Of a DNA stretch of 64,000 bases, positions 20,155 through 56,620 are shown piece after piece. The notes beneath the pieces were generated by a model. It saw nothing but the letters and a program-made list of their open reading frames with translations, did no database searches and had not been told where the DNA came from. Origin of the DNA: Endomicrobiales bacterium (GTDB lineage: Bacteria > Elusimicrobiota > Endomicrobiia > Endomicrobiales > CAWCFT01); the NCBI GenBank assembly GCA_963794945.1, contig CAWCFT010000018.1, forward strand, positions 3,479-67,478, read 5' to 3'. Numbering within the stretch: the first letter of the stretch is position 1; each line of letters opens with the position of its first letter. The translations under genes and the position numbers were made by a program.

Positions 20155-20171
20155 AACTACATATCCATCTA

Positions 20172-20194: not shown

Positions 20195-20202
20195 GTTTTT
20201 CC

Positions 20203-20231: not shown

Positions 20232-20271
20232 TTATCAGATAATATTATAAATATCAGGTAATTACTGTGTA

Positions 20272-20763
20272 TTGCCTGAAAGGAACTATTTTTTGACCTT
20301 GAAATTCCTCAATTTATTCGTTTGCCTTATAACAATTCTGCAGATCACCGCCGCGGGGGTCAGTATATCTCCCGCGCGAGCCGGTTCGTGTGCTCTTTTG
20401 GGCACATACACGGCCGATTGCGAGCGCGTCAACGATTTTGTCGTTTCAACCTCTCCTCTTGGCGAACAATTCAAATGCGCGGCACCTGTAAAACCAAACG
20501 CTGATATTTTCTTTGCCATGCCTGAAATACGTAAGGCAAATGAACAGGCCCTGAAACAGTTCAGGCTTCCTTGCGTTGAGGCAAATTCATTCACCTGCAG
20601 TGAGGGTTTCGTGCTGCTGGACAAAAAATGGTCAGGCCCGCCGGGCCGGTCTTCTCCTCCTATTGCATATTTCATTTTGTTCGCTATAATACTCGCGCTG
20701 AGCAATTTGCCTGCGCCTGTTTCTTGCTTTGCTCGTTCGGTAAACCGCCCGGCTAGACGTTGA
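20272..20763 (+). CDS. Small exported Cys-containing protein with a C-terminal hydrophobic helix, upstream of giant gene B
   Basis: The start is uncertain: TTG at 20272, or TTG at 20293 preceded by AAAGGA. The protein has a hydrophobic N-terminus (LKFLNLFVCLITILQITAAG), 7 Cys, and the tail ..GPPGRSSPPIAYFILFAIILALSNLPAP..RR. It has the same architecture and position as 11980..12480. Confidence 0.55.
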   Translation: MPERNYFLTLKFLNLFVCLITILQITAAGVSISPARAGSCALLGTYTADCERVNDFVVSTSPLGEQFKCAAPVKPNADIFFAMPEIRKANEQALKQFRLPCVEANSFTCSEGFVLLDKKWSGPPGRSSPPIAYFILFAIILALSNLPAPVSCFARSVNRPARR

Positions 20764-20831
20764 AGCCGGGTTTTTTATTTGCTGAGGCAAATAACCCGCC
20801 GATGAGGCGGGTATACTGGTACAAGGGCTTT
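20748..20831 (+). promoter_or_regulatory. Structured leader upstream of giant gene B (homologous to the A leader)
   Basis: H1 is cccggct/agccggg (20748-20770) followed by T6 (20771-20776). H2 is atttgc-tgag-gcaaat (20777-20792). H3 is cccgcc-gatga-ggcggg (20795-20811). The strings cgggtttttt(t)attt, aaataacccgccga..aggcgg.tata and tacaag are shared with A. Confidence 0.55.
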
Positions 20832-20912
20832 ATGAACTTCAACAAATTCATTTCCATTATCACAACGGCCTGCTTCCTGGTGTCGTTTATAGCGTCGCCT
20901 GCTGTGCAGGCG
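20832..20912 (+). other. Sec-type signal peptide (or signal anchor) of B
   Basis: MNFNKFISIITTACFLVSFIASPAVQA|MQA; the core ITTACFLVSF is identical in A. Confidence 0.6.
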
Positions 20913-22238
20913 ATGCAGGCGCCAGTTCCCGGACAGCTGGATTTCAATAAAGCAGCGGAAGGGCTTAACCTACCCGGAACCGTTGGCAGAGTAACCGGCG
21001 GCAAGATTTTTGGAGACGGCCTTCTGGTAATAAATATTCAGGACTTGCACTGCCATGCGGAAGTGCAGAAAAATATAAGCCGCATACTCGAAATGATAGA
21101 AGCGCAGTACGGGCTAAAGAATGTCCTGGTGGAAGGCGCGGCAGGAGATGTGGACACTTCCTGGCTTACCAGCCTTAAAGATAACGCTCTGAAAAAAAAG
21201 ATAGCCGAAACACTGCTTAACCAAGGCAGGCTTACCGGCGCCGAGTATTATTCCGTTCTAAACAATAAGCCCCGCCTGCTAAAGGGGCTTGAAGATGAAA
21301 AGCTCCATACAGAGAACATCGCGCGCCTGGGCAAGATCCTTGAGCGCAGGCCGGTGTACGATCAAAAGATCAAAAAACTCACTGAAGACCTTAACTTTTT
21401 AGAAGCTAAATATTTCAGCTCACGAAACAGGAAGTTCAACAAAGCTCTCGAAAGCTATAAAGAGGGCGGAATGACTCCTGAAAAGTATTACACGCTTCTT
21501 GTCAAATACGCTGAAAAAATAAACAACGGTTCCAACCCTTTCAACCCAGTATTGGCTATAAGGGTAAAGGACTATCCAAATATAGCCGGCTATCTAAATA
21601 TGATTGAAGCTGGCAAGCGTATAAGATACAACCGGGTAGGATACCAACTGCAGGGTTTTGTACAACAACTGAAAGCCAAACTACCCTACAATGAATATAC
21701 TAAACTGATAGAAAAAACAAACAATTTTGCGAAGCTTGACCAGGCCTACCTATCGCTGGCCCAGATATCAGAACAGTACCACATGCATCTTGAAGGCGAA
21801 TATCCAGACCTTGCCGCTTTCTTTGAGTACCTTGAAAAGGGGCGGAAGGTCAACCCGATGGCTTTGATAGATGAGGAGAGGCGGCTTACTGAAGCCGTGC
21901 GCATAGGCCTTGCGCGAAATGTTGCGGAATTAGAAGTGTCATTTGCCGCTGATTTCTTCGTGTGTTTTAAAGATTACCTGCTCAACAGGCTTTCCGCGGA
22001 TGATTACGAGTATTTCACCCAGCGGTTCGATAAGTTCAAAACTATCTGGGGCAAGTACGTTTACGCGAACCGCCTTAATGATATGTCTGCCGATTTCGCC
22101 CTTCTTGATGAGTTCTACCGCGTTAACAACGAACGCAGCCGCAGCTTTTACAGAGCATGGCAAATTGCATTAAGTGCCCTTCAGCAGGGGAAGAAAACCC
22201 CAGCTGCACGGATGTTACAGCTTCCCTCCCCCGGCTGA
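20832..22238 (+). CDS. Giant gene B, segment 1 (signal peptide plus the N-terminal domain shared with A)
   Basis: ORF track gives 20760..22238. I place the start at the ATG at 20832 (MNFNKFISIITTACFLVSFIASPAVQA), where the alignment with the A start begins. The segment is alignable to A along its whole length. Confidence 0.85.
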   Translation: MNFNKFISIITTACFLVSFIASPAVQAMQAPVPGQLDFNKAAEGLNLPGTVGRVTGGKIFGDGLLVINIQDLHCHAEVQKNISRILEMIEAQYGLKNVLVEGAAGDVDTSWLTSLKDNALKKKIAETLLNQGRLTGAEYYSVLNNKPRLLKGLEDEKLHTENIARLGKILERRPVYDQKIKKLTEDLNFLEAKYFSSRNRKFNKALESYKEGGMTPEKYYTLLVKYAEKINNGSNPFNPVLAIRVKDYPNIAGYLNMIEAGKRIRYNRVGYQLQGFVQQLKAKLPYNEYTKLIEKTNNFAKLDQAYLSLAQISEQYHMHLEGEYPDLAAFFEYLEKGRKVNPMALIDEERRLTEAVRIGLARNVAELEVSFAADFFVCFKDYLLNRLSADDYEYFTQRFDKFKTIWGKYVYANRLNDMSADFALLDEFYRVNNERSRSFYRAWQIALSALQQGKKTPAARMLQLPSPG

Positions 22239-22300
22239 ACCCTAAGGAAATAATCGTTACAATTACAGGCGGTTTTCACACCAGGGAGCTCCAGCGCCTG
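21022..22300 (+). other. Conserved N-terminal domain shared with A (unassigned)
   Basis: LVINIQDLHCHAEVQKNI..KNVLVEGAAGDVDTSW..LTGAEYY..IIVTITGGFHTRELQ, collinear with A 10385..11675. Confidence 0.4.
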
Positions 22301-25300
22301 CTCCAGGAAAAAAAGGTTTCCTGCCTTACCGTAACCCCGAATGTCAGCAAAGGAACGGAAGAATCTAACGCTATTTATATGCATTTGGCCAGCCAGCAGG
22401 CGGCTGTTTTGAATAATCCTCAACTTAGGCCCAGTAGCGCGGCGGCAAAAACCATCAATTCAAATGCCTTACAGCTAGCCATAGAAAGCGTTCAGTCCGG
22501 TAACGCCAAGCTGGAAGCAGTCGCTAACGCGCTTTGGTCTTACGCGTTAACCACTGCTGATTTAAACGCTGTCAAAGATGAAATAGAACTGTATTTACAA
22601 TCAAATTCTATTAGCGGAAGTGCCAGCATTGACGCCAAGGCAGAAGCCATTGTTGTAACTTGGAAAGACGTTTCCGGCCAGAGCCGCACCATAACCATAA
22701 GTAAAAACGCGGAGTTCGGCAGCCTGACTCTATCCAGCCGGGCTCACAGCCTGTTAAATGACATACTCCCCAGCCTAAAAGCAGGCGAACAAGCAGAAAA
22801 AACCGCAGTTGGCTCTTTCGTTCTGCCGGTTGAATCAATGGTGGCTATGGGAAGCCTGATAGTTGAGGTACTGGCATCCTTAGAGCTGTCGCTTGCGGCT
22901 GACAGCCTTGTTACCGGGGACGGCCTGATATACGAAATATCTCATAATGAAGAACTGCAGAAACTGCTTGAAAAACAGATCAATATTGATATGCAGAAAT
23001 TAGGCCAGCTGCCCGACTGGCTTCAAAGGGCCCTTGCTGTAAGGGGCAAAGCCAGACAAGGCATTGCCGCAGAGCTTTCCAAAGAAGACCAAAGTGCGCT
23101 TATGAAAGCGCTTCTTTCAATACAGCCGGTATATGACCTTCTTGTTTCGTTAAATGCGACAAGGGTGATCGACAGCCGGCAAGCCAAGCCTGATACCGGT
23201 TTAAAAAATGGAAATGTTAAGAAAAGCAATTTCTATAATTACATTAGAGGCGGGTTTGTCGAAGAAAAAGATCTTCCAATTACAGACTTGCAAAAAGATA
23301 CTATAAACATGCTCGCGAAACAAGCGGGTATAACTATAAATGGTTTAGAGAATATCAGCTGGAAAGAAGCGCACAGAGTTGAAACTCTTCTAAAGATACT
23401 GCCCCAGAACCATTTAAACCGCGTAAAGAAAGTTAACTATATCGTGAAAATTTTAAACCCACTTGTGTCGGGCTGGACCGATTTTGCAAGTAAGACCATT
23501 AATATAGTTGCAAAGAAAAGATTTAATCATGATTATGGCGAAGTGTTCGTGCACGAGCTTGGGCATAAAGTTGACACCTCTCCTTATGCCATAAAAATAA
23601 TTCAAAGTCTAATGGATTTTTTGCTTACCTGCGCTTTATACTGGGTTGTTATGCGTGTAATTTTCACTGGCGATCAAATGAGTTTTCATAATGCGGCGTT
23701 TGACATTGTTTCGGTCTTTGTTATAACTGCAATTTCCTATATAAAATCAAAGATAAAGGCGTCGATCGGCAGAAAAATGGTAAATACAAATTCTCGTATT
23801 AGCGAATACGCGGCTACTAACGATAGGGAAAACTTTGCTGAAAATTACGCGTATTATGTTATTTTTGGCGGTGAATTCAGGCGCCTAGCTGGAACTTCGG
23901 CCAAGCTTGCGAAACAATATCAAAAAATGAAAAAAATATTTAATGGTATTGAATATACAAGGAATGAAAATGATGATATTGTTATTCTAGAAAAAAATAG
24001 TGAAAATACAGTATTGCCAGCTGAAGACAAAGGCATGGGGCTGCAAGAACTAACGAAAGCATCTGATTTGGCAGTCTCGGCACAGCCTGACGCAAGCCAG
24101 GCACCCGCCGCCAAAGGAAGGCCCCGCAGTGCGCCTGCCGGCTCACAACGGTATTTACACAGGCTTATAGATGTTCTTAAACTGCTTCAGGATGAAAAGC
24201 TGACTAAAGATCGTTTTTTAGAGGCATACTATAATTTTGAGAATCTCTGCTCCAGCGCCCGTAAAGATTACAGTGAAAATATGTTCCTTTACAGGCGCGC
24301 AGAAGTCTTTAAGACCTTCCGTGTATTCACAAATCCGGAAACACTATGGGATAATACCGTCGCGGCTTCAATTCGCGCCAGCGCTGAAAACAGCATTCAA
24401 AGCCTGCAAAAAGAACTTTCGGCAATGGAAGCTGACACCGGCACTGCCATGCCGAGAGAAAGTATCTTCGATGGGCTGGAAGAAACACCCAATATCAGGC
24501 CGGTTTTAGCCGCCAACAAACCCGTTATAGCAATAATGGATGTGCACGGAACACTGATACAGTCAAGCTGGAAAGTGGCATATGAACAGGTATATTTCAA
24601 ATTAACGGGAAAGCGCCCTCCCGCTCAATGGATATTAGAAAAAGTTTGGAACAAGCCTGACAATGAGGTCGCGGCTATGCTGTCAACTCAAACGGGCAGG
24701 CCCGCTTCAGAAATACTGGATTTAATTAATAAAAACAAAAGCCTCGTAAAATCCAAAAGTGTCCCGCCTGCCCTTCCGGGAACCCTGGAATTGGTAAAAG
24801 CATTAAAGGAGCAGGGGGTTACAGTAAAAATTGTGAGCAACACCCCTGGTAAAATTGTTATCAATCAGCTGGAAAAAGCCGGATTCTTAAATTATATAAG
24901 CAGGGATGACATTTTTTATAACGACCAGCCCGCTTCAAAATATTTCCATAGGGCGAAAATAATCCAGAATATAATTACGCAAAACCCAGGTTTCAATATC
25001 GTTTACTTCGATGACAGCTTCAGAGAAATTTCAGAAATTTCAAAGCAATTTGGGAAACGGATGACAATTTTTGGCGTTCCTGATGGAAAAGGTATAGAAT
25101 CAGAGAACAACCGCGTGGAATTAATTAAGTCGGGCGCTCATTACATTGTGCTCCGTAAACAGGGGTTCCCGGTTGAAGATATACTTCGTTGGTTAGATAA
25201 AGCTCCGAAAACCATTAGCCCGGCAGACAATAACATAATTGAAAGCCAGCCTGGCCAGGAAATTGAACAGCATACAACTGCAACCCAAATTTTGACACAA

Positions 25301-26515
25301 AAACAATCCATACTGAGCAGTACCGGGCAAGCGCTTAAAGCCATAGCCCGCGAAGTTGTGCTCTGGTACGGAAAATTCTATCAGTTGTCTATGCCGAAAC
25401 AGTTCCAGGGCTTGCTGCCCAAGCCCTATAAGCCGCTGTACATCATGCAGGAAACAACCGGCAAACAATACGAACCACAGAAAGATTTGCTTAAACAATT
25501 TATCGAAAATAATGCGGAAAATCTCGCATTGCCGCTGCGAAAACTGAAATATTTCAGGACGGAATTCAGCATTTCTGGTGATGGGGTAGTCAGCGATGTT
25601 CCGGAAAGAATATCTTCCTCAACAAGACGGCCTAACACAAAAATATTAATCCGCTGGCAGGAATTCAGCGGTGGAAAAAACTTCTGGATGCCGGCGCCTG
25701 ACGACCGCGAAATGGCCGCTATGGCCACCGCGAATAATGGCGAAAGCTATACCGGCGTGCTATGGCAGGGAAGCTCACAAGATGAGCTGTATCTTGTCCT
25801 AGTTCCGGTCTCTGAATATTTTAAAGCGGGTTATAGCCTGTCTACCGCGACATTAAGATTGATCTATGAAACTATACTCAGCTTGGAACGCCGCAGAAAG
25901 GACGGTAATCAAATTGAGATCTCAAATAAGGAAAAAGAAGGGTTCGCCCACGCACTAGACTCATTGGACAGGCTTGGAACGCGCTGCTACACAGTCAATT
26001 TCAACGAAGAAAAGAAAGCAATTATCAAACAAATTGACAATGAAACCCTTTCGCATGTAATCTACGAAACAATTATCAAACCTACTAATGATAAAGAGAT
26101 GGAAAGATTATCCGAATTGAGTTCTGACCCTGCTATTCTACAACTGCGCGGCCCCGGCAGTGATGAGGGAGACGTGCTGGGAACTATTTTAGAACCCCTG
26201 CTAAACAGCAAACTGACAGCCGGCCAATTTAAACGTACATTCGATAATATTCACAGGGCAATGTTCCGTAATTTCATAATAATGGAGCGAAAAGAAAATT
26301 ATACTATAGCTATTATTATGATTAAAGAAATCTGCAATTCGTTAGATATGCCAGTTGAATTGCGCAAAAAACTGTCTAACCTGATGATGGGGATATTCTT
26401 CGATCAGAACGGTAAAAGCCGTGATGTTATAGTGCAGACCGCTGCTATGAAATATGCAGCAAAGAAGCTACAGCAGAGACAATCCATATCGTGGCGCATA
26501 AAACAGAACGCTTAA
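22157..26515 (+). CDS. Giant gene B, segment 2 (rest of the shared N-terminal region, HExxH peptidase-like domain, HAD-like domain, repeat X1)
   Basis: 1452-codon ORF overlapping segment 1 by 82 nt. ..KEIIVTITGGFHTRELQ.. matches A ..SEIVVIVTGGFHTQGLK.., which is uninterrupted in A. Confidence 0.9.
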   Translation: MANCIKCPSAGEENPSCTDVTASLPRLNPKEIIVTITGGFHTRELQRLLQEKKVSCLTVTPNVSKGTEESNAIYMHLASQQAAVLNNPQLRPSSAAAKTINSNALQLAIESVQSGNAKLEAVANALWSYALTTADLNAVKDEIELYLQSNSISGSASIDAKAEAIVVTWKDVSGQSRTITISKNAEFGSLTLSSRAHSLLNDILPSLKAGEQAEKTAVGSFVLPVESMVAMGSLIVEVLASLELSLAADSLVTGDGLIYEISHNEELQKLLEKQINIDMQKLGQLPDWLQRALAVRGKARQGIAAELSKEDQSALMKALLSIQPVYDLLVSLNATRVIDSRQAKPDTGLKNGNVKKSNFYNYIRGGFVEEKDLPITDLQKDTINMLAKQAGITINGLENISWKEAHRVETLLKILPQNHLNRVKKVNYIVKILNPLVSGWTDFASKTINIVAKKRFNHDYGEVFVHELGHKVDTSPYAIKIIQSLMDFLLTCALYWVVMRVIFTGDQMSFHNAAFDIVSVFVITAISYIKSKIKASIGRKMVNTNSRISEYAATNDRENFAENYAYYVIFGGEFRRLAGTSAKLAKQYQKMKKIFNGIEYTRNENDDIVILEKNSENTVLPAEDKGMGLQELTKASDLAVSAQPDASQAPAAKGRPRSAPAGSQRYLHRLIDVLKLLQDEKLTKDRFLEAYYNFENLCSSARKDYSENMFLYRRAEVFKTFRVFTNPETLWDNTVAASIRASAENSIQSLQKELSAMEADTGTAMPRESIFDGLEETPNIRPVLAANKPVIAIMDVHGTLIQSSWKVAYEQVYFKLTGKRPPAQWILEKVWNKPDNEVAAMLSTQTGRPASEILDLINKNKSLVKSKSVPPALPGTLELVKALKEQGVTVKIVSNTPGKIVINQLEKAGFLNYISRDDIFYNDQPASKYFHRAKIIQNIITQNPGFNIVYFDDSFREISEISKQFGKRMTIFGVPDGKGIESENNRVELIKSGAHYIVLRKQGFPVEDILRWLDKAPKTISPADNNIIESQPGQEIEQHTTATQILTQKQSILSSTGQALKAIAREVVLWYGKFYQLSMPKQFQGLLPKPYKPLYIMQETTGKQYEPQKDLLKQFIENNAENLALPLRKLKYFRTEFSISGDGVVSDVPERISSSTRRPNTKILIRWQEFSGGKNFWMPAPDDREMAAMATANNGESYTGVLWQGSSQDELYLVLVPVSEYFKAGYSLSTATLRLIYETILSLERRRKDGNQIEISNKEKEGFAHALDSLDRLGTRCYTVNFNEEKKAIIKQIDNETLSHVIYETIIKPTNDKEMERLSELSSDPAILQLRGPGSDEGDVLGTILEPLLNSKLTAGQFKRTFDNIHRAMFRNFIIMERKENYTIAIIMIKEICNSLDMPVELRKKLSNLMMGIFFDQNGKSRDVIVQTAAMKYAAKKLQQRQSISWRIKQNA
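23280..23960 (+). other. HExxH zinc-metallopeptidase-like domain with two hydrophobic segments inserted
   Basis: GEVFVHELGHKVD (HELGH at 23552-23566), then the hydrophobic segments IIQSLMDFLLTCALYWVVMRVIF and AAFDIVSVFVITAISYI (about 23596-23745), then SEYAATNDRENFAENYAYYV. The HExxH...E-x-F-A-E order resembles MtfA/M90-type zincins. Confidence 0.5.
24518..25159 (+). other. HAD-superfamily hydrolase-like domain with a variant motif I
   Basis: Motif I is VIAIMDVHGTL (DVHGT at 24539-24553; the canonical form is DxDGT). Motif II is KIVSNTPG. Motif IV is IVYFDDSF. Confidence 0.55.
25487..26510 (+). repeat. Protein-level repeat X, copy 1 (shorter than X2/X3)
   Basis: LLKQFIENNAENLALPLRKLKYFRTEFSISGDGVVSDVPE..YTGVLWQGSSQDELYLVLVPVSE..LGTRCYTVNF..LRGPGSDEGDVLG.. 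aligns with X2 and X3. Confidence 0.8.
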
Positions 26516-26534
26516 AACCGTTGCCCGCGAAATT

Positions 26535-28259
26535 GTGCTTGGCTATGAGAAATTTTACGAATCCCTGCCGGGATCTTTCCGGGATATGCTGCCCAAGCCG
26601 TACAAGCCGCTTCATATAGTCCCGGAAGAACGCGAAATATTCCCAGTTTCATATAATACGCAGGCGGTAGGTTATGTACCGGTAATCCCTCCAAACGCGT
26701 ACAACGCTCTTTCTGATTCTGTCTTTAAAAGAACAATTGACGGCCTGATGCGGGAGATCAATGACCCGTTCAGTGAACTTGGAAGAGAAAGGCAAAGTAT
26801 AATCACTAAAAGCGGCTTATCTCTGGAAGAATACAAAAGATTCATGCTGTGGCAGGGAAGGCAAAAGGGTATCCGCGGAACCAAGACTTTTTCGTATGTT
26901 GGCGGGTTTAATTCATTCAGGCCGTTCGCTGAATCCGAAGCTATTACCGATGTATATTCAATGGGGCTTGAATATTTTGGAAATGCAACAGATTTAATTG
27001 GAGCTTGCAAATCAAATTATACCGGAAAGGCCTATGTATTGTCAGGAATGCAGTATGAAACATATGATCCAGTAAATCAATACCGTTATCATAAGGCGCC
27101 GGGAATCATGGCGATCGCTAAGATCATTTCGTGGCTGGGTGGGAGTATAGAGGGCCTGTATTATTTTGACATAAATGAGAAAGGAGAGTTCGGTTTCCTT
27201 AACAAAGACGAAGCCATATCCGGCGACAAGCACAACGCGGTAATTGAATTTACCGTTGGCGGCACAACAAAACGTTTCTGGTACACACAGCAAGACATTT
27301 ATACAATGACAGATAATTTTAAGCGCTATATGGGCAGAGTCGAGTTCGATAATTTTCTGATAACCGGACTAAACGGCCTTTTTATTTACATACTTCTAAA
27401 GTCTATGGGTGAACATTCAAAAGCGACTATAGAGGAACAGATGGCTCCCGCGGTCAGGAATAACGCGCTTGTAACAACAAACGCTTCCCGACCCTATGGC
27501 CGCGAACCTAATCCAATATGGCAAAAGGGGTATCCGGTACAGGTAATACCTCTTGAGCCCGGGCAGAAGTACGGTTACAGTGATGGAAATGCAGAACATG
27601 AAAATGCAGAACGTGGAGGAAATATATTTTTCGGCAATGCCGAAGGCCTGGTCGGCTCATCCTGGCGGCCGGCTGGTAACGATGGCAACATTTTCAGCGC
27701 CTTAAGCATAGCGGCAGAAGAGGCGCTCAACCTGACCGGCACCGCACTGGAACAGCAACTGCAAAACATATCCGTTGAACTGGGAATGCTTGCAACCGAA
27801 CATTTTACCCCAAACGCATATATAGGAGCGCTCAAACAAACATTTATTGAAAAAGGCCGGGCATTCGGTATAAACTCCGGTAATATTATTGTCAAGCCCA
27901 TCACGAAGTTTGAGCAGTTCAGGGACGCTGACGGCGGCATCCGGCTTTCAGTTTCGCGCCTTGCGCTGGAAAATGGAAAATACGTGCTTTATATACATCA
28001 GGGTTTTTTAAATGCCTTGTTTTCAATGAGTGATGAACAACAAAAGACAATATGGGAGCAGTACAAATGCGGCCCTCCGGAAGCCTTCGCGGTAGAAGAA
28101 CTTCAGGAATTAGCTGAGATACAGAAATTGGTCCAGCAAGGCACGCCCTTCGATAAAGCCTACGAGCAGTACCACGCATTTAACCCGCATAATGATATTT
28201 TCACTATTCTTAGCCGCGCGTCTCGCGAAAAAAGAAACGCTAATATTAAAAAACCATAA
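26535..28259 (+). CDS. Giant gene B, segment 3 (repeats Z1 and Y1)
   Basis: 574-codon ORF. Its frame is already open upstream of the called GTG start (LKTVAREIVLGYEKFYESLP). That stretch matches LKAIAREVVLWYGKFYQLSMP, which precedes X1 inside segment 2. Confidence 0.9.
   Translation: MLGYEKFYESLPGSFRDMLPKPYKPLHIVPEEREIFPVSYNTQAVGYVPVIPPNAYNALSDSVFKRTIDGLMREINDPFSELGRERQSIITKSGLSLEEYKRFMLWQGRQKGIRGTKTFSYVGGFNSFRPFAESEAITDVYSMGLEYFGNATDLIGACKSNYTGKAYVLSGMQYETYDPVNQYRYHKAPGIMAIAKIISWLGGSIEGLYYFDINEKGEFGFLNKDEAISGDKHNAVIEFTVGGTTKRFWYTQQDIYTMTDNFKRYMGRVEFDNFLITGLNGLFIYILLKSMGEHSKATIEEQMAPAVRNNALVTTNASRPYGREPNPIWQKGYPVQVIPLEPGQKYGYSDGNAEHENAERGGNIFFGNAEGLVGSSWRPAGNDGNIFSALSIAAEEALNLTGTALEQQLQNISVELGMLATEHFTPNAYIGALKQTFIEKGRAFGINSGNIIVKPITKFEQFRDADGGIRLSVSRLALENGKYVLYIHQGFLNALFSMSDEQQKTIWEQYKCGPPEAFAVEELQELAEIQKLVQQGTPFDKAYEQYHAFNPHNDIFTILSRASREKRNANIKKP
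26680..27689 (+). repeat. Protein-level repeat Z, copy 1
   Basis: VIPPNAYNALSDSVFKRTIDGLMREINDPFS..FMLWQGRQKGIRG..FNSFRPFAESEAITDVYS..APGIMAIAKIISWLGGSIEGLYYFD..HNAVIEFTVGGTTKRFWYTQ..FDNFLITGLNG.. Confidence 0.85.
27690..28205 (+). repeat. Protein-level repeat Y, copy 1
   Basis: IFSALSIAAEEALNLTGTALEQQLQ..IVKPITKFEQFRDADGGIRLSVSR..KYVLYIHQGFLNALFSMSDEQQ..CGPPEAFAVEELQELAEIQKLVQQG..AYEQYHAFNPH. It shares an identical 27-nt run (gcagaagaggcgctcaacctgaccggc) with Y2. Confidence 0.9.
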
Positions 28260-31200
28260 CACCGGAAACAATATGGGGCTAATAACTGGCGGACAAAATG
28301 ATGACATTTTAAGCCGTTGCATAGAAAATAACGGAGAAAACCTCTCGTTTCCTTTTTTAAAGAAATTGCTTTATTACATGACAGGTTTTTCTATCGCGGG
28401 AACGGGCGCCGTCAGCGATGTCCCCGAAACAATTAACAACATTCCTTCACAGATAAAAAAAGAGGATGCAAGAATAGCCCTGTTTTGTCAAACACTGGAC
28501 GGTAAAAACACATACGGCATGCCGACGCTTCAGAATATGGCAACTGCCGGTGAAATCCTTAACAGCAAAGAGCAGTGTTACGCTGGAGTTGTTTGGCAGG
28601 GAGAAGAACGGAATGAATTATATATCGTTGCGGTTCCTGTTTCTGAAACAAATATCTACAACTTACAGCTGGGGATTCTTGGCCAGTACTTGATAACTAT
28701 TGCAAAATTTGAGAGAACGCAGAAAAATATGAGCTCAACTGAAATTTCAGCCGTCAAACAGAATATATTCGCGGCTGCTTCAAGCGTATTGTCACAAATG
28801 GGCACCCGCGCTTACTCTCTTACAATTGACCCGCAAAACGGCACGGCTATAAAACCTTTTCCGCTGGAAAGCCTCGTTAGTGTTATTTACGAGTCAAGCG
28901 TAAGGCAGTCTCTCATGGGAATGTTCAAAAAGATGCAAGAAAGCACTTCCGAACAAGCGCTTTCAAAACTCCAGGGCCCTACCGCGGATGAAGGCGATGT
29001 GCTGAGCGTGATGCTGATTAATTTTACCAGAAACAAAGATCGTTTATTGGAACAATCGTGCTATCGTACATACAAGGAAATCGTGGATGACATGTTCAAG
29101 CAATATCAGTATTTTGAAATTCATGCGTATTACGCTTACATTGCGCAAATTGTAGCCAAGCACTGTGAAAAATCTGATCTGCCCGCGAATTTAAAAAAGC
29201 AATTTAAAGATATTATCCTGTCAACGTTCTTTGATAAGAACGGCAAAGCATTGAAGCCTTATCTCGCGGTAGCTCCAGAGTATTATGTTCTTAACAAATT
29301 GGCCGAGGCGGATATACTGGTTTTAAGAGAACGTGTTAAAACGCTTAAAGGGCCCACTCTCAGGTCAGGCCAAATATTAAATGTTCTTGAGATACTTGAC
29401 GAGATGGATAGCAAGGACCTGCAAAAAGTCATTATAGTATTAGAAGACGCAATGATATGGATAGATTTTCTGAGCATTGCAGGAGACAGTTTTAATGTCA
29501 ACATGGATGTGATGCTCCCAAACTGGTGCCTGCAGTATTTTATAAAAAACGGCACGGACATAAACAGTAACAACCTGCAGACTTATGAATATGCCATATA
29601 TGCAACAGCAAGACTTATTGCTGCCGTGCGGTATGATGAAAATAACCACAAACGCAGCCCTGAAGGCCTGGAAACAATACTCAGCTATATAAAGCTAAAA
29701 GCCAGATACCAATTAATAGCACAGCAACAAAAGCAAAACAGCGGCAATTCAGATAATTTATTCAGCGCCTTAAGCGTAGTAGCAGAAGAGGCGCTCAACC
29801 TGACCGGCGGCGCGCTGGAACAGGAACTTCAGAAAATATCTGTCAAAATAGGCAGGCTTTTTTCCTGGCATTTTGCCGTAAATTCACACGCGGAAGCCCT
29901 CAAACAGATGTTTATTGACAAAGGCCGGGCATACGGTATAAATGCTGATAATATTATTATCAAGCCCATCACAAAATTTGAACAATTCACTGACGCTAAA
30001 GGCAAAACCAGGCTTTCTGTTTCACGCTTTGTGCCGGAGGACGGCAAGTATGTGCTTTACATACACCAGCGCTTTCTGGATGCCCTGTTTTCAATGACTG
30101 AAGAACAGAAGAATGATATTTATGAGCAATACCACTGCGGCCCTCCGGAAACCTTCGCGATAGAAGAGGTTCAGGAATTCGCGGAAATACAGAAATTAGT
30201 CCAACTGGGCGTGTCCTTCGATAAAGCCTACGAGCAGTACCACACAGCTAACCCCCACCACAATGTTTTTACCGAAACCGCTTTGCAAACAGCGGCAAAG
30301 CAGATAGACGTATTGAAGCGGTGCATAGAAAATAATAAAAATAACCTGGCTCTTCCATTAAGAAAACTGCGGTATTATTCAACCGGTTTTTCTATTTCTG
30401 ATTCAGGCGAAGTCAGCGATGTACCCGAAACAGTTAACGGCATACCCTGGCAGATTGATATACCTGACGCAAGGGTAGCCCTGTTTTGGCAAAAACTGGA
30501 CGGCAAAGATAAATTCGGCATGCCGACACCCGCTGATATTTTAACTGCCGCTGGAAGCCTTGCGGGCAAAGAGCCGCGTTATGCGGGAGTTGTTTGGCAA
30601 AAGGAAGCTCAGGGTAATTTATATATCGTTGTAGTTCCTGTTTCCGCAAACAATAACTACGAAAGCGCGCTGAGAACGCTTAGCAAATACCTGTCAGATA
30701 TCGCAGCTTTTGAAGGACAAGAGAAAGTAATTAATTCAGCCGATCCCTTCCCTGAAGAGCAAGATGCATATATGCTTGCCAGTATGCTACTGTCGCAAAT
30801 GGGCGCCCGGGCCTACTCTGTTACGATTGACCCGGAAAACGGCGCGGCTATAACCCCCATGTCACAAGAAAGCCTGGTGCGCGCTTTTTACAAACCAAGC
30901 GAGGAACAGACTGACTCAGAACAACCCGATAAGAGGCAAACAAATATTTCGGAAAAAACTCTCTTTAACCTTCGGGGCCCGCACACTGACGAAGGCGATT
31001 TACTGGGTGTCCTGCTGCTTAGTTTTACTAAGAATACAGGCCTATTGCTGGAGGAACCGTGCTTTGTAATTTACAAAGATATCTTGACGGACACGATAAA
31101 ACAAAAAATATATATTGACATCCACGAAGACTATTCGTCCGTCGAAAAAATTGTAGACAGGCGCTGTGATGAATCCGTCCTGCCGGCAAATTTAAAAAGG

Positions 31201-34200
31201 CTGTTGAAAGAGATTATTCTGTCAACATTGTTTGATAAGAACGCCAAGGCATTAGAGCCTAAAGTTCGCGCAAACGCGTGGGTTTATGTTCAAAACAAAT
31301 TGGCCGAAGCCGACTTGCGTATTTTAAGGGAACGCATAAAAATACTTAAAGGGCCGTCGGTCAAATCAGGTAAAATGCTAAATGTTCTTAATGCGCTTGA
31401 TGCTATGGACAACTTTGACATTCAAAAAACCAACGTAATCTTATCTCAAGCTAAGGATTTATTAGACATATTGCAGAATAAATATGGAAATACTTTTAAT
31501 AATAGCGTAGAAGATACGTTGAAATTATGGTGCATACAAAACAGCAAGATAAGCTCTGCGGCAGGCATCGATAATAACTTTGAAGCGCATTTTGATGCGG
31601 CAATTATATTTGCAAAACTGATTATAGCGGTGTGGTATGACGAAAACAACACCAAACGCAGCCCTGAAGATATGCAAACAATACTCAGCTACTTACAGAT
31701 TAAGGGCAGGCTGCAATTAATATCACAGCAGCATAGCAAGGAACAAGTCAAAGAAAACGAGCAGGGACAGGACACATCCAATCATCTGGGTATCGGCCTT
31801 GAAGCAATTATCTGGGCCGCTCAAGGTATATTAACTATAATGCCCGGTGTAGAGCAGTCGGCGCTGACAGCTGTTGAACTCGCAAAGTCTATTATCAGAG
31901 GAGCAGTGATCGTTTCGAACAGCGGCGGCTTCGCCCGCGAATCAACCTATACGCTTGATCAGATTGTCCCTGAGCTGGCGCGCGACATAGAGTATTACAA
32001 CACACTCTGCCCAGTCAACGGTTTAAGGCTTTCAAAAGTGAAAGTTCTTGAATCGAAGTCTGACTATATAGCCACCAATGACAGCCTTGGTTTCGCCAGC
32101 ATGGAAACTCTGGCTTTTGACGAAGAGACAATGACAGTAAAAACAGCCGACAATAAGGGTAATCTCAAGACACTTACGGACCGCCTGCGCCACGAGTTTA
32201 ACGAGAATATGGCCATGAATATTGAAGGTTCGGTTCAATTCGCGGCTTTGAACTATTTCCTGGTCAAATCCCATGTAGCCAAACCCCACATGCCGAGGGG
32301 CAACTTGAGCGGGGAAGAGCTGATAAACTGCTGGCACGCGTGTGAAAGCGACATTGCCGGGAACCAGGACGAGTACAGGGAACTGTTTAAAAACGATAAA
32401 GACCTGGAAGCAATTGAGAGGCTAATCGCTTTCGCGAACGAAGACTCTACAAAGCTGTTAAAAGTTTATAAGTCACTTTCCGAAATTATCGCTGGGCTGG
32501 CAAAATCAGTCCTCGCAAAACCAGTCGTTGTTGACAAAGTTGAAAAGCAGCCGCAAGTCTTCTCCAAATATATTCCAACAATCCCCCCAGGCGCGTTTAA
32601 CGCTCTTACCAGCCCGGAATTCAAAAAGACAATCGACAGCCTGACGCAGGAGGTCAATGACCCGTATAGTAAAGTTGGGATAAAAAGGCAAAGCATCATA
32701 AAACAAAGCGGCCAGCCTCTGGAAAAGTATAAAAAATTTATGCTGTGGCAGGGAGAGCAAAAAGGCGTCCGCGGAAAAGGGATGTTTTCGTGCGCCGGCA
32801 GGTTTAATTCGTTCAGGCCGTTCGCTGAGTCCGAAAATATCACCGATGTTTATTCCAACGGCCCTGAATATTTTGGGAATACAAACGATATTATAGAAGA
32901 ATACAGCGCAAAATACGATGATAGATCCTATATACTTTCAGGGATCCAATATGAAACATATGATGAAGGAAAGGCGGCCTGGCCTAAAAAGGCGCCGGGT
33001 ATAATAGCTATCGCCAAAATCATATCTTGGCTGGGCGGCGCTATAGACGGCGTGTATTATTTTGACGTAGATGAAACGGGCAGATTTAGTTTTGTCAATA
33101 AAAATGAAACCATTTCCGGCAGCAGGCACAACGCGGTAATTGAATTTACAGTAAACGGCGTGAAAAAGCGATTCTGGTATACGCAGCTGGATGCCAAAGC
33201 GTTGACAGATAATAATAAACGCTATATAGACAGAATCGGGTTCGACAATTTCCTGGTAACCGGCCTCAACGGGTCTATAATGTATGCTGACGATAATGGA
33301 GTGCGGGATTATGACGACCTGTTAAAAATCCGGTCAAAAAACACTGGTGAACAAGAGAGATCAAAGACAATAATAGAGCTGCAAATGGCTGCAGCGGTCA
33401 GAAACGGAGCGCTTGTAACAATAGATGTTTATAAGTTCGAAGGCGAAACGGCTTATCGTCTATGCTACAGAGGCTATCCGGTAAAAACGATATTGCTTAA
33501 ACCCGGTCAAAATTACGGCTATAACACCGGAAAGGCTGGAGGGAAAATATATTTCCTCCGCAATGCCGAAGGCTTGATAGGCTCACAATGGCGGCGCAAC
33601 GACATCAACCTCAATGACAAGCCTAATATATTAAGACAAACACTGATGTTTTTATTGATACCTTTTTTCGCTTTTAACTCATACTTCCCGCAGCTAAAAG
33701 CAGCTCCGCATGATACCGCAGTAACGAGCAAGCTGTCTGCGGCATATCTGTACAGGGCAAGCGCCGGAAAGGCTATTGACTGGCTTGCGCGTGGTTCGGA
33801 ATACGCGCGTATGAAAGGATTCCTGCAAAGGTATTTTGATATCGAGAACCCTGCCGCTGATATGCAGGCATTGATCAAACGCGCATCGCGCGGGTTTGAC
33901 AGCGACATGGAAACCCGGGCGGTTGACCTTATCAACAAAATGAGAAAAGCCGTACCTGACGGTTTTGTTTTTTCGAAGCTTGGCGCGGGCGATTTTTCGC
34001 TATTGATGCACATTCTCAGGAACCCTGAACTTGAAATTCTACTATTTGATAGGGAAACGCTTGAAGTGTATTTATCAGAGAATATTATAGGAGGCGTCCC
34101 CGCCGCGCAATTGTCTAATTTGCAGATGCTTCGTATATATCTGATCTCCGAAGCACTAAGCGATTATGCCCCGGTCTCAACACAGGACTCGCTCGCAAGA

Positions 34201-41355: not shown

Positions 41356-41400
41356 CGAGCTGTTTGACATCGAGAACCTCTTATCAAACCAACATCTTTC
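41000..41400 (+). repeat. Degenerate repeat Y, copy 3 (crosses the segment 4/5 frame break)
   Basis: ..RLSVELSG..GSLTLYIHQEFLNALY.. then, in the next frame, ..AQFVGEEVDELFDIENLL.., collinear with the Y1/Y2 elements LSVSR / LYIHQxFLxALF / AxEExQExAEIQKL. Confidence 0.5.
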
Positions 41401-44400: not shown

Positions 44401-47400
44401 TCAGCCAACCGGCTCAACTGAGGCTGACTCCGGACTACCAGGCAGTGATGAAACGGTGCCGGAACAAAACACCGGCGATGGCCGTATCCCAGCGTCAAAT
44501 GTTACGGAGTTCGCCGCTAATCGTCCTACCGCAGAAGAATACGCTAGAAAACTTGTCGCTGACAAACAACTAACGCTCACAGCGGACGATGGCAAGCAGT
44601 TCCGCTTTGTCTATGAAAACATGCCTTCCAATGAATTTAAGCTTATAACCTATGACAATATGACTAATGAACAAGTTGGATTTATAGATGTCCGCGGCAA
44701 TCGCATAGATTCTGCTTTTAATGAAATATTTATTGGTGAACCGGCCATAGTAGTGGACAATAGGTATAATGAGCGATACCGCGGTATCGGCTCAGCTCTT
44801 TTGCGGCTTTCAATGTCGGTGACAAAGAATAATGGGTATAAAGAGTTTGATGTCTTATACGGCAGTAAGGCGGCAAAGTTTTATAGAAGCGCTGGTTTTG
44901 AAGAGATAAATCATGAAACGGGCAAATTTTCTTTCGATTTTACAAAGAAAAAAATAGGCGGAATTCTGCTCGAATACTTTCCTAAACCCGAATTTCTGGT
45001 AAATGAGATCGCTAAATTAAGGAAAATAGACTCAGCGGCCGCGGACATCCTTCTGAAGCGTTTGGGGATGACTTCCAGGGCTGACAAAGATGGTTTGCGG
45101 TATTTAAACGAAGATATTCAGTGGTTCAGAACACATAGAAAAACTAAAGACGGTGTGTATTTTGACCCTATCGATAAAAACAACCCTAAAGTGTCCGTTA
45201 TTTTACTTCATTATGGGAATTCAGTTAAAGATACATTACAGGCCCTCAACAACCTTTCACTGAATACCTATCCTGATCTTGATGTTATTCTCGTAGACAA
45301 CAATTCTCCCGTTCCGATCGAACAGAAAGATATCTCCGCCAAAATAGCGGATAAGTTAAAGATAAAGCTTATTAAGAGCCCCGTGAATCTCGGTTACTGC
45401 GGGGGCAATAATATGGCCGCGCGCGCAGCTCTAAACAACGGCGCGGACTATGTTTTCCTGTTTAATAATGACGGCTTGATAGAAAAAGACGGGATACAGA
45501 AAATGATAGATAAGCTCAAGGGCCATCCTGAAATCGGGGCCATACAGCCAAGCCTTTATACAACCAATGAGCTCAAAGAAATAAATGAAAAGGGTGTTCT
45601 GCCGGAAGAACAGGGCACGGATGCATTAAACAGGACTCTTGAATTCACTTACGGCTTGGAAAAAACCAATACCGCTTCAAAATTATCCGACAACTTGTAT
45701 CAAAAAGAAATATCCCTGCTGGGCACCGCGCAAATGGTCCGGTCGGACATGATCCGTTTGAGCGGCATGTTCGATACAAGGTTGTTTATGTACGCGGATG
45801 AGGCTTACCTGGGTTATCGCTATAGCATGACCGGCCTGAAAATGGGAATGGTAACCGATGTGTTTTTTGCTCATCCGCCTTTTGCGGCCATTGAAACCCC
45901 GAAAGTATACAGTGAATACCTCATCTGGCGCAATTATATGTTTGATGCGGAATATCTTTACAATATTGACGATATGGGAAAAAGGGCGGTTAAAAACCTC
46001 TTTGGGCCGCGTAACTTGTTCATATCAAATGATGATGCAGTTTGGAGAATGGTGGAAGAAAGCGCCAATGAAAACGACATATTGCTTATTGCGGTAGTAA
46101 AGGGCATGTTTGACGGAGTTATGGGACAGTATTCGCCAACTGTAGAAGGGCAAAACATGGACGAGAAAAAGCAGATCGCGACGTATTCAAAAGAGTTCGA
46201 GAAAATGATCGATGTTAACGGGATTTTGCTTAGATTGATAAATGAAACCGATCCATATCAATCAAGGCTTATGATCTGGGGGCTGAATGCCGCCGACAGC
46301 AAGATACATAATATCGGCCAATTGGACGGTATACAAAGGCAAAAACTAATCGACACACTGAAATATTATGTGTCAGAATGGAGAGATTGGGTAAAAACAA
46401 AACATAGAGACCAATCGGCAATAACAAAAATAAGAAACGAATTTAAAAATGAACTTCTGGGTAAGATTAATGTATTCACACCGTCAGAAACCCTCGGGCA
46501 TGAGCAATATTTAGACAGGTATTCCGATAAATCTAATATTAACGATGAAGCTTATATGCAGGTGGCCCTTAACGAGTCGCGCAAAGCCGGCATCGAACGC
46601 TGGTTGTTTACAGCTTGTGTCGGCGCGGTTGTGGTAAGCGGCAAAGGCATTATTGTGGGCAGAGGGTATAACCGCATGTTCTCGCAGTTCCATGCGGAAC
46701 ACTATGCCATACTTGACGCGCTGTTTGCGCGCGTGGAGTCGCTTGCCGAAGGAAAACAGAAAGGTATAATGCGTAGCCGCATTAATGAAATACTGCGCAC
46801 TGCGAACATGCCCCGAGCGCCCGATTATTATGATAATCTCGATGCGGCTATCACAGCGTTAAACAGGGATTTGGGCGGTGTTTTGCAAAATTCTCCAATT
46901 TATGTGACTATGCACCCCTGCGATAAGTGCACAAATCTCATAATGTCTTTGGGTATGAAGCGTTTGGTTTATGGCGCCGAAATGCCGGGAGGCTCATTAG
47001 ATAACGGGAAAAAGTTACGAAACGCGGGGATGGAAACTACCGGCGGTGTTTTGGCGCGGGAGTCACGCACTGTAATGACCGGATACTTTCTGCTCAAAAC
47101 CTATTTTTCATATATTCACGAGCTTATCCAGCGCCTTGAGCGTCAGATTATATCGCGCCGGCACTCCGTTTTAACTGCCAATGAAATGGCCTCTCTCAAT
47201 AAGCCTGTTGAGCTGTCAAAAACCACCGGATTAAATGTAACAGATGAGAACGAAAAAAAACCATCCACCCCGATTATAACTACCGAACCTGAAGAAGTCC
47301 TTCCAATAGTGCGAGGCCGGTCATGGCAGGATAGAATTTCTTTTATCAGCAAAATTGAACAAGAGGGGTTAGTGAACAATAGTTTGCGTATGGAATACGC

Positions 47401-55100: not shown

Positions 55101-56334
55101 GGCCGGGCACAGCCCGGTATTTTTCAGCCAGGAAAACAGCGTGGTATATCTTTATATTGACGCCGAAGGCGCTGATTTCGCGGTGGGAGCAAGCCAGATT
55201 ATGGCCACATTGAGGGGTTATGGCAACCTTGAAGCGGATCCCCGCGCTTTAAAGATGCTTGGTATAAGAGAAACGGCAAAAGATAATGCTGTAGTATTTG
55301 ATTATACTGGCGGGGCCTTAGATAGAAATATGCTTTCTGATACCCCAGTGGTGCCTGGTGAGAACGTGAATATCGGCTTTGGCGCGATAAGAGAACTGGA
55401 TCGTGCGCATAAGAACGCACGAGCGCCTGCCGAGGTAGGCATTGAACGCGGCTGGAGTGATGAGCTCTTAGACCGAAGCAATATAGAAAGCTTTAATAAT
55501 TCAATCATTATTCCATCTGGAGACATCTTTAAACTAACCTTAGAAAAGGTTCGTCAGCTACAGAGCGAAGGCGCAAGGGTGCACGCGATATACGAAGGGT
55601 CAGATATTGAACAAGCAAGAGCTTTCGAGCGAACAGCCATAGGCTTGGGCCTCAACGGCATATTCTGCCCTGCTCTGAGCCCCGAAGCAATGGTCTCACT
55701 GACCAAATTAGATAATTCCGAACCTGCAGGTTTTATTGTATCCGGCCAGCTAGTTGGAGGCAGTGCCGAAAAGAGAAAATTTTATAGTTTAGAACTTTCT
55801 GCCGCTGACTATGCCGCGCGGATAGCCGCAATACGCGATACGGAGTTCCCTGTCGTAAGTATCAAGCTGGGCCAATTATCCACCGCGGACGCCGCTAAGC
55901 GCGTAGAAGCCCTAAAAGACCTGCCCTCTTCAGCAATTATTATCTTTACGGCTGATGATATAAAAAACAACGGAATGTTCAGAGATATTTCAGAAATTAA
56001 CATATTCGGCGCAAACCTCCTTAAATTCCTGCGGCTGACCCCGAGGACTATTTCCGAGAAGGAAGCTTTCCAGAGGCGTGTGGCGTTCGAGCTTGATTTT
56101 GGAACGTTTGAAGTGCCCCAGGACGCCGCGGCTTACATGGAGAACATCAGGAGTGAAAGGTTCGACCTGACCTCTTTCCCCGAAAATACTGAAGTTCTCG
56201 CAGCGGCTAAACTTCACTTAAGCGAAGAATCAGAACGTTCGGCTCAAAGACGTTTTCAAACAATCACTTGTCAGCCGCATAAGGGCCCGTATCGAGCTTG
56301 CCGGGAAAAGAAAAATGCTGGGGTTAGAAAATAG
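52030..56334 (+). CDS. Giant gene B, segment 8 (1434 codons; TM pair, GHKL ATPase-like domain, unassigned C-terminal regions)
   Basis: GTG-initiated ORF overlapping segment 7 by 127 nt. The frame change is plausible at the G4/C4 runs in gcaggggtgggagtccccggc (about 52034-52054). Confidence 0.9.
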   Translation: MRRGGSPRLLNPTGIHREMPLLHACEANVAFIQIFSKNNVQIANAVVVFAKNGAYVYGGYNNSSYNMDGVYGEAIKELTKYVPRVYLTKNSAGYSDLVNYGSNVEGEVIVQKPSVYFTGQYYDAGTVTSDGDLSVNLVNPLEVTYEGIRKNGGFEKKEEAKAPERVEIKSNIEWEKLQEMLDVQGLKKFSRIMSNFKKKVAEQGAFAVDNDYYDWVANDIRSWHRGDVSDAQIEEIADILVDFLESQQWPVEVLTGPDRTGILQVGGLGVVIGMALASWGLPVLGGVVLTLGVASLFVGPDAGKFKNFGGYFWQYISSFIPRLGKELSSALRHESSKQVAVSIARTTANNSGRTKKIVTESSADSSQSSIPNRTDAISPIILTENVVDFKFANTEEILRGLFVKWKNRVNTQTLSNENLRLIEEFLRAYGKPMDRDRLVNYDIVSTALRELLKNAFDAYISAAAEGKIRFRMMVEGNFLVFEVSDNGIGIEEQYYDNTGRLHVVPNDVLPYAYISTRYGGAGLGMLHTQILAQVHGGSLKYLTGQNDGYKTTARLTIPMTTVSIKFRNKDGRVMSAKTYLRIINKDKIEAQNKAEEDLIIQQYGIDRTTAEQAVRNGWTVERMKDIENINDNFCNIFEKRFGFTVRPKIIFKPSPNLPYNIATISRYNDPQINSWVFIAVTRFNYKTAVNTINNWYLEEFAHALQNNLFGERFASFPEMKPTDYAAFCAELKKGFTAKDSRLSVPPFNITSVTGRGSQYGSFYMLDEEILRQLFEVHAAALAWILSLTWLPQESLDSDRRFAYWDAAARIEEAEFPSHLFSGILPYLIGVRTPPNSSIRIPSLASHAAMWEAVLELNGKYGFIPAEKLKKIEEFVKIRQKAMQVTDLEGKNIYLALKESYKAYFLSVTQSFINSDKSIQELVQNNRINIKSNFFVQISLAITSYLSNLKYSSNIVAEWADKFMRERTNGLYGTELPMGVFIAENIGQLSGVQFEVKKYLPVVITSTKGNEKEIENTTTKNLGVTAGHSPVFFSQENSVVYLYIDAEGADFAVGASQIMATLRGYGNLEADPRALKMLGIRETAKDNAVVFDYTGGALDRNMLSDTPVVPGENVNIGFGAIRELDRAHKNARAPAEVGIERGWSDELLDRSNIESFNNSIIIPSGDIFKLTLEKVRQLQSEGARVHAIYEGSDIEQARAFERTAIGLGLNGIFCPALSPEAMVSLTKLDNSEPAGFIVSGQLVGGSAEKRKFYSLELSAADYAARIAAIRDTEFPVVSIKLGQLSTADAAKRVEALKDLPSSAIIIFTADDIKNNGMFRDISEINIFGANLLKFLRLTPRTISEKEAFQRRVAFELDFGTFEVPQDAAAYMENIRSERFDLTSFPENTEVLAAAKLHLSEESERSAQRRFQTITCQPHKGPYRACREKKNAGVRK
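52825..52930 (+). other. Pair of glycine-rich hydrophobic (TM-like) helices in B
   Basis: GGLGVVIGMALASWGLPVLGGVVLTLGVASLFVG. Confidence 0.55.
53356..53703 (+). other. GHKL (histidine-kinase-like) ATPase domain
   Basis: N box RELLKNAFDA, G1 box SDNGIGI (53482-53499), G2 box YGGAGLGM (53584-53604), then ..GGSLKY..TTARLTIP. I could not see a HisKA dimerisation/phospho-acceptor helix directly upstream. Confidence 0.65.
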
Positions 56335-56620
56335 CGGGCTTGAAGAAACGCTAGCCGTAGCACTTGACATGTCGGAAGGAAGGTTTGTCAAGAACGATAA
56401 CTTCGCCGGAGAAAAATCGGTTGCGGATGCTGGCAAAGCCTTAGACGACAAGGTCTTGTCATGGAAGTCGATCCAAGACCAAAAGATAAAAACGGCACAG
56501 GCCGCAGAGATCGCCGGCCTCATCATTCAATACGCCGATCCTCGCGTGAAAAAACTTGACAGAAATCGGCTCCGTGCGAGCGACCTGAAAAACACAAAGG
56601 CGATACTCGAAGCCGCATAA
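56315..56620 (+). CDS. Giant gene B, segment 9 (C-terminal tail)
   Basis: 101-codon ORF overlapping segment 8 by 20 nt. Its frame is open upstream (..DVFKQSLVSRIRARIELAGKRKMLGLENSG..). The stop at 56618-56620 is the proposed end of the giant gene. Confidence 0.7.
   Translation: MLGLENSGLEETLAVALDMSEGRFVKNDNFAGEKSVADAGKALDDKVLSWKSIQDQKIKTAQAAEIAGLIIQYADPRVKKLDRNRLRASDLKNTKAILEAA

Follow-up and report, generated by a model that had tools for sequence, protein, structure and literature searches.

We analyzed a 64,000-nucleotide stretch of contig CAWCFT010000018.1 (hereafter the window) from an uncultivated Elusimicrobiota bacterium and found that nine consecutive plus strand open reading frames (ORFs) at positions 20760–56620 very probably constitute one 35.8-kb gene encoding a protein of 11,922 residues. 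It is highly likely that this is a single gene and that its eight breaks are single-base insertion or deletion (indel) errors in the assembly consensus. In the scheme that we propose, positions 20832–56620 would form one gene, and the breaks would be consensus errors of one base left most likely by uncorrected long-read data, not genuine gene boundaries. The encoded protein belongs to a very large lineage-specific Elusimicrobiota family with Pfam annotation of neither end. The existence of such genes is not new: genes of at least 10,000 amino acids (aa) were frequently detected in Elusimicrobiota, and long-read indels were already reported to terminate prematurely or split giant genes (West-Roberts et al. 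2023, bioRxiv 10.1101/2023.11.21.568195).

The nine ORFs (ORF1 to ORF9) occupy positions 20760–22238, 22157–26515, 26535–28259, 28192–41355, 41258–50692, 50665–51060, 51017–52156, 52030–56334 and 56315–56620, and neighbors abut or overlap. A preliminary description of the window, made from its letters alone, had listed these ORFs with overlaps of 20–127 nt or a 19-nt gap between them. These coordinates were reproduced (overlaps of 82, 68, 98, 28, 44, 127 and 20 nt and one 19-nt gap). The reading frame changes at all eight boundaries (0-based frames 2, 1, 2, 0, 1, 0, 1, 0 and 1 for ORF1 to ORF9) and the downstream frame is open ahead of the upstream stop at every one of them. One frame switch in each of the eight junction zones yields a single frame of 11,922 codons free of internal stops (20832–56617), close to the roughly 11,900 codons anticipated, and with its stop codon the whole conceptual gene spans 20832–56620 on the plus strand, as do all features of it given below. 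The longest ORF of the gene in the deposited sequence encodes 4,387 aa, and the figure of 11,922 codons follows from eight presumed in silico corrections. In alignments, residue 1 of homologues falls on the ATG at 20832. On an independently assembled Logan contig, L081, the gene is called from an in-frame ATG at 20802.

Both ends of the reconstructed product are recognizable. A signal peptide (MNFNKFISIITTACFLVSFIASPAVQA, then M) is encoded at 20832–20912 and opens a family-defining N-terminal domain (20832–23150) with a core of approximately 540 aa, invariant QDLH, EG and GGxH motifs and an extension to about residue 730. At the other end, a family-defining C-terminal module of approximately 580 aa (54868–56617) terminates in ...NTKAILEAA. 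Residues 11340–11922 of the giant protein can be aligned over their whole length with the C-terminal ends of the family proteins P0059 (37% identity), P0053, P0001, P0047 and P0029. The matched family C-termini end in K-A-I-L-E/Q-A-A, R-K-I-L-E-A-A or K-A-L-L-E-A-G, and ORF9 ends likewise. Because both terminal modules align with family proteins at these positions, the family member starts in ORF1 and ends in ORF8/9. The giant locus contains a single N-terminal domain, at 20832, and a single C-terminal module, at 54868–56617.

We then considered the individual junctions. At all eight, coding potential leaves the upstream frame and enters the downstream one within the overlap zone. None of the candidate internal starts is preceded by a properly spaced Shine-Dalgarno motif; such a motif is present at a related gene on the minus strand of the window (paralog A, 746–11989), at the LpoB and membrane-fusion genes and at other genes of the window. 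Homology supports continuity at six of the eight junctions: uninterrupted homologues span the break at junctions 1, 3, 4, 5 and 8, and at junction 2 the similarity to an internal repeat extends ahead of every possible start codon. The interpretation of the nine ORFs as pieces of a single giant gene thus gained support from the family ends located in ORF1/2 and ORF8/9, from homology at six of eight junctions and from internal starts lacking Shine-Dalgarno motifs.

Junction 1 (22154–22199, frame 2 to 1) cuts the N-terminal family domain. A search with the junction peptide matched six Elusimicrobiota proteins of 1,489–3,498 aa (P0001 to P0006), and both these and paralog A are continuous across the break. 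Residues 1 to approximately 510–730 of the seven sequences share 40–50% identity with the window at 20832–22154 and from 22232 onward. The homologue alignments follow one frame over 20832–22154 and another from about 22193–22250 (to 22426 for P0001 and to about 23155 for the others). Paralog A, a second member of the family with an intact N-terminal domain, aligns without a break from 11875 to 9605 on the minus strand, in agreement with the earlier statement that its equivalent stretch is uninterrupted. A chimeric junction-peptide query returned only the six N-terminal-domain relatives and no near-identical fragments.

Junctions 2 to 4 are covered by repeats. At junction 2 (26502–26512, frame 1 to 2) a stretch reading LKTVAREIVLGYEKFYESLP...PKPYKPL starts at 26511, 24 nt ahead of the first possible start at 26535, and repeats a stretch internal to ORF2. 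As had been suggested, the segment LKTVAREIVLGYEKFY encoded from 26511 matches LKAIAREVVLWYGKFY in ORF2, with 57% identity over 42 aa. Junction 3 (28205–28252, frame 2 to 0) falls in the first copy of a tandem duplication of approximately 2.06 kb (27672–31738, copies at 27672–29734 and 29740–31738). The copy with the break is collinear with the in-frame copy, again as described before, and DNA alignment of the two places one extra base near 28212. A repeated module of P0049, a family member of 6,680 aa, also bridges this junction. Junction 4 (41272–41355, frame 0 to 1, coding potential crossing near 41295) is located in the 580-nt spacer between the second and third of three copies of an approximately 2-kb module ending in TPR repeats (37006–43589, copies at 37006–38845, 38830–40897 and 41480–43589). 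A repeat of P0049 bridges it as well. The assertion that a repeated module crosses this break was borne out through that external homologue, as the internal copy alone is significant only upstream of the break.

Junction 5 (50560–50692, frame 1 to 0, crossing near 50635) falls among helical repeat units of approximately 58 aa, an array that is continuous in P0034 by local phmmer. At junction 8 (56235–56243, frame 0 to 1), which cuts the C-terminal module and precedes the first possible start (56315) by 72 nt, P0059 and P0053 continue across the break to the last residue.

Frame disruptions are not limited to the giant gene. At least 10 apparent frameshifts were found in approximately 28 kb of flanking sequence compared with 8 in the 35.8 kb of the giant gene, and the disruptions of the window, at least 18 in number, are all frame changes, none being an in-frame stop. 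The gene for 6-phosphofructokinase (PFK; 17925–18847, minus strand) is in two pieces covering Pfam positions 1–196 and 218–277, that of an HD-GYP-type response regulator (18899–19874, minus strand) is split by a frameshift, and a second MacB-type ATP-binding cassette (ABC) transporter gene (MacB2; 61194–63149, plus strand) is in at least three pieces. Breaks in the flanks include those near 16013, 18200–18260, 19690, 62120 and 62740. The 119 closest relatives of the PFK are nearly all full length (approximately 304–337 aa, mostly 319–320 aa; two are short or partial), and the truncated 201-aa form was found only on the window's own 81.7-kb contig. Named close PFK relatives are all labeled Elusimicrobiota, Endomicrobiales or Elusimicrobiales except one, labeled Christensenellaceae.

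Independent sequence was recovered as two Logan contigs, L001 (run ERR11523656) and L081 (run ERR10755936), both located outside all eight junctions. Look-ups based on TolC (two different starts), p171, a 470-aa gene, the membrane-fusion protein, ORF6 and ORF9 yielded no further independent sequence. L081 perfectly matches positions 19715–21141, including the start of the giant gene. L001 equals the window (15198–17543) at 2346 of 2347 positions and carries one extra base. This base, missing from the window near 16013, restores a 183-aa nucleotidyltransferase gene (NTP_transf_5; 15654–16207, minus strand) that the window splits into two ORFs, and hence directly demonstrates a consensus indel, outside a homopolymer. 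Together the two contigs give one indel per 3.8 kb of independent sequence, consistent with the density of disruptions in the window. If the breaks of the giant gene are errors of this type, the window would lack a base at junctions 1, 5 and 7 and contain a surplus base at junctions 2, 3, 4, 6 and 8. The cause implied by the preliminary description, indels removable by re-polishing, therefore agrees with flanking genes that carry frameshifts as densely as the giant gene or more so, and with one frameshift that an independent assembly lacks. At approximately one frameshift per 3–4 kb, gene calls, pseudogene counts and protein-length statistics of this assembly are unreliable until polishing, as every long gene would be shattered; we would regard the nine-ORF pattern as an assembly artefact and treat the gene calls of the contig as unpolished.

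Several points weigh against this interpretation. The error status of the eight junction sites is inferred rather than observed, because no independent sequence over any of them was retrieved. The long-read origin of the assembly is likewise presumed. The verified error lies outside homopolymers, as do several junction zones, and a model restricted to homopolymer errors, which we also considered, was accordingly unsupported. Lastly, no homologue spans junction 6 or junction 7, and the surrounding stretch (50–52.5 kb) holds three breaks within 1.5 kb and has no relatives by word-indexed search; its sole phmmer matches are the P0034 repeats across junction 5.

Could the frameshifts be real mutations in an Elusimicrobiota lineage undergoing decay, for instance a host-dependent one, so that the giant gene and many others are pseudogenes? 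Some Endomicrobia are endosymbionts with many pseudogenes. The frameshifts in the genes for PFK, the response regulator, MacB2 and paralog A could also occur in a degrading genome, and the junction sites could not be checked against reads. We nevertheless find this explanation unlikely, since one of the frameshifts is missing from an independent contig that is identical to the window in all other respects and the split PFK is unique to the contig of the window. Moreover, mutational decay does not readily account for disruptions that are exclusively frameshifts, with zero nonsense codons in 11,922 codons, or for coding potential that is fully kept on either side of each break.

Junctions 6 (51005–51060, frame 0 to 1, crossing near 51030) and 7 (52027–52156, frame 1 to 0, crossing near 52070) were assigned only from coding potential and from internal starts that have no usable Shine-Dalgarno motif. 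If one or both were true boundaries and most other junctions errors, the locus would consist of two or three large genes. The lack of a bridging homologue and the presence of start codons in the overlap zones (ATG at 51017 and GTG at 52030) favor such an arrangement. We rate it as quite unlikely, however, as a gene ending at either junction would be without the family C-terminus and a gene starting there without the signal peptide and N-terminal domain. In addition, the coding potential of the upstream frame fades 30–90 nt before its stop, no properly spaced Shine-Dalgarno motif is found at either site and real gene pairs do not typically overlap by 44 or 127 nt. A last alternative is that the nine ORFs are individual genes under translational coupling, or that programmed ribosomal frameshifting connects them. 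The same-strand overlaps superficially resemble coupling, and this alternative is highly improbable given homology upstream of the earliest possible start at junctions 2 and 8, conserved domains cut mid-way at junctions 1 and 8 and housekeeping genes broken alike. Programmed frameshifting is rejected further because the shifts run both ways (+1 at five junctions, -1 at three) and none of the three -1 zones contains an in-frame X XXY YYZ slippery heptamer.

Domains of the giant protein were assigned by Pfam (E ≤ 0.01) and PDB searches. After the signal peptide and the N-terminal domain come an HExxH motif (VFVHELGHKVD, 23552–23566) followed by a hydrophobic segment, in a region common to P0018 and P0037, and then a HAD-type hydrolase domain (24533–25024). 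These are followed by duplicated modules of 0.8–2 kb in two to three copies, including the three that end in TPR repeats, and an HD domain of the RelA/SpoT/Mesh1 (p)ppGpp-hydrolase type (35602–35991). The order continues with a GNAT acetyltransferase domain (44651–44905), a family 2 glycosyltransferase (GT2) domain (45218–45583), a cytidine/deoxycytidylate-type deaminase domain (46541–46987), a second GNAT domain (48338–48490), a cluster of hydrophobic segments, a GHKL (HATPase_c) ATPase domain (53359–53709) and the C-terminal module. Segments resembling signal peptides recur in frame where the 2-kb modules begin and are therefore internal hydrophobic segments, not gene starts.

The preliminary description had counted at least 14 enzyme-type domains, of which profiles recognize only about eight (HAD, HD, two GNAT, GT2, deaminase and GHKL, plus one HExxH motif). 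Of its further claim of a signal peptide and more than 10 hydrophobic segments, the signal peptide was upheld; 11 windows reach the threshold for hydrophobicity but collapse to about nine distinct segments. Its remark that the domain combination was not a recognized one proved apt, as the protein corresponds to no named family and belongs to the Elusimicrobiota family introduced above. No close relatives of ORF4, which encodes part of this central region, were found in GTDB genomes or JGI metagenomes.

The family is broad and concentrated in one phylum. A profile of the N-terminal domain matched 8,182 cluster representatives. Among the best 150 of these, the domain starts no further than approximately 55 residues into the protein, apart from about a dozen in which it starts at about residue 95–212, and the longest has 7,833 aa. 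The C-terminal module was found at the extreme C-terminus of approximately 45 of 151 family proteins compared by iterated search. At 79 loci from GTDB genomes, most ORFs with the N-terminal domain extend unbroken beyond the retrieved DNA (at least 3,800–4,089 aa), and the records of all but one locus name Elusimicrobiota, Endomicrobiales or Elusimicrobiales. The exception, L003 (JBDRNO010000048.1), comes from a metagenome-assembled genome (MAG) labeled Bacteroidota, where the ORF ends after 276 aa; it may reflect mis-binning or another broken copy. Among these 79 best matches alone, single Endomicrobiales MAGs carry 9–11 loci each, as in JBELAT01 'SPRUCE 9' (in the range L009–L035) and JAFGIL01 'Zod_Metabat.202' (L023–L068). 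Copies of the N-terminal domain have thus multiplied strongly in this lineage, and the gene centers share few modules.

Neither end has a Pfam or PDB sequence match. A profile search of PDB with the N-terminal domain gave no match, and Pfam searches of 28 N-terminal domains and of three C-terminal modules gave nothing consistent. A confident AlphaFold2 model of the N-terminal domain, built on the copy in paralog A (pLDDT 85, pTM 0.80), has an alpha/beta core that is split by a helical insertion of approximately 280 aa; the region equivalent to the signal peptide is modeled as a helix followed by a disordered linker. Foldseek returned no significant match to this model (best EreC, E = 0.22, TM-score ≤0.17; all TM-scores ≤0.28). 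The best non-significant folds, EreC, the Bacillus Ere-like structures 3b55 and 2rad, HopBA1 and ChaN, suggest a possible relationship to the erythromycin esterase/ChaN/TIKI/TraB-PrgY superfamily. A His/Glu/His pattern is typical of this superfamily, and the modeled domain resembles it in having a split alpha/beta core with an invariant His (QDLH), Glu (EG) and His (GGxH). It differs in the approximately 280-aa helical insertion that splits the core and in having no Pfam or PDB sequence match. The C-terminal module, modeled on P0059, is predicted to have a TIM-barrel-like center and a helical tail, for which Foldseek gave only non-significant TIM-barrel-like matches.

We compared the giant protein with other very large bacterial proteins. 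Like the giant genes of the PVC group described by West-Roberts et al., it would comprise a single ORF of at least 10,000 aa (here after correction in silico) from an uncultivated PVC-related phylum, with an N-terminal signal, several transmembrane segments and unannotated stretches among enzyme domains that include acetyltransferases, and it appears to be broken by long-read indels. The conserved N- and C-terminal modules of the Elusimicrobiota family are not described there. Unlike the Omnitrophota giants (Archaeovorin and Dockerin types), it has no match to a SecA DEAD helicase, C39 or S8 peptidase, dockerin or carbohydrate-binding unit, and neither a locus resembling a type II secretion system upstream nor pilZ downstream. 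As had been noted before, features of adhesins and megasynthases are missing: Pfam searches of the giant protein matched no Ig-like, cadherin or similar beta-repeat arrays and none of the condensation, adenylation, KS, AT or carrier domains of nonribosomal peptide and polyketide synthases.

Some similarities to MARTX and polymorphic toxins are apparent. In both cases the family ends are conserved and the center varies between paralogues, many divergent copies occur per genome, enzyme domains requiring cytoplasmic cofactors are present (here deaminase, GNAT, GT2 and HD) and, in the window, a set of TolC, membrane-fusion and ABC genes lies directly downstream. On the other hand, the giant protein lacks RTX or glycine-rich repeats (no match to HemolysinCabind, to related Pfam families or to other RTX repeats, as previously claimed), a CPD, HINT or other recognized processing protease and repeats of the RHS or filamentous haemagglutinin kind, and an immunity gene is likewise missing. 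Furthermore, the toxin-type domain is internal and not C-terminal, the ABC genes are MacB-type and not HlyB-type, and transporter genes are absent from the flanks of the 79 other family loci. The conserved C-terminal KAILEAA motif is at most suggestive of a secretion signal.

In our reading the family has a fixed chassis made up of a Sec-type signal peptide, the N-terminal domain of approximately 540 aa and the C-terminal module of approximately 580 aa ending in K-A-I-L-E-A-A. Between these ends is a variable, duplicated center, which in this member consists of hydrophobic segments, TPR blocks and HAD, HD, GNAT (two), GT2, deaminase, GHKL and HExxH units. We tentatively suggest that the signal peptide and hydrophobic segments could mediate export or anchoring in the envelope, with the ends serving in targeting, anchoring or processing and the center being exchangeable enzymatic cargo. 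A more speculative possibility is that the protein is the largest member seen of an undescribed Elusimicrobiota-wide system, in which an Ere/ChaN-like N-terminal domain and a KAILEAA end, often accompanied by a small membrane protein encoded upstream, would carry exchangeable nucleotide-, sugar- and acyl-modifying blocks. Based on the analogy with MARTX and polymorphic toxins, the targets of such a system might be other cells or the envelope of the producing cell itself. Speaking against a functional reading of this kind, neither terminal module has a significant fold match. If confirmed, a protein of 11.9k residues would be about 1.5 times as long as the longest of the best 150 family representatives (7,833 aa). 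The remaining interest resides in the family itself, which is large, has neither conserved end annotated in Pfam or PDB, and offers a defined and tractable target for studying the role of very large multi-enzyme proteins in Elusimicrobiota.

Together the 35.8-kb gene and paralog A occupy approximately 47 kb of the 64-kb window; other genomes contain as many as about 10 family members. Paralog A encodes radical SAM and phosphoglucomutase domains after its N-terminal domain and shows three apparent breaks (9153/9161, 1660/1703 and 1242/1252), assigned from ORF geometry with no bridging homologue shown. No C-terminal family module of paralog A was found within the window, and the gene may continue past the left edge.

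Upstream of the giant gene are the response regulator, PFK and tyrS genes. Directly downstream (56814–61159, plus strand) are genes for a TolC-family protein, a membrane-fusion protein (MacA/HlyD-like) and a MacB-type ABC transporter. We considered these as a dedicated exporter of the giant protein and rejected the idea, since no such genes flank the other 79 family loci.

Small genes are also found immediately upstream of both family members. Directly upstream of paralog A and on the same strand (11980–12495, minus) is a p171-like gene of approximately 170 aa, whose product carries an R-G-N-L-P-A motif and a hydrophobic segment at either terminus. Homologues occupy the same upstream position at 20 or more of the 79 family loci (among others L007:9398, L006:9440, L012:9411, L068:9439 and L002:606), and the p171-like gene and the family gene may constitute a conserved two-gene cassette. 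The small ORF upstream of the giant gene (p163; 20272–20763, plus strand) is identical on L081 and likewise encodes hydrophobic N- and C-terminal segments, with an LSNLPAP motif. It matches the p171-like profile weakly (6.6 bits) and may correspond to the small membrane-protein gene located directly upstream of many family members.

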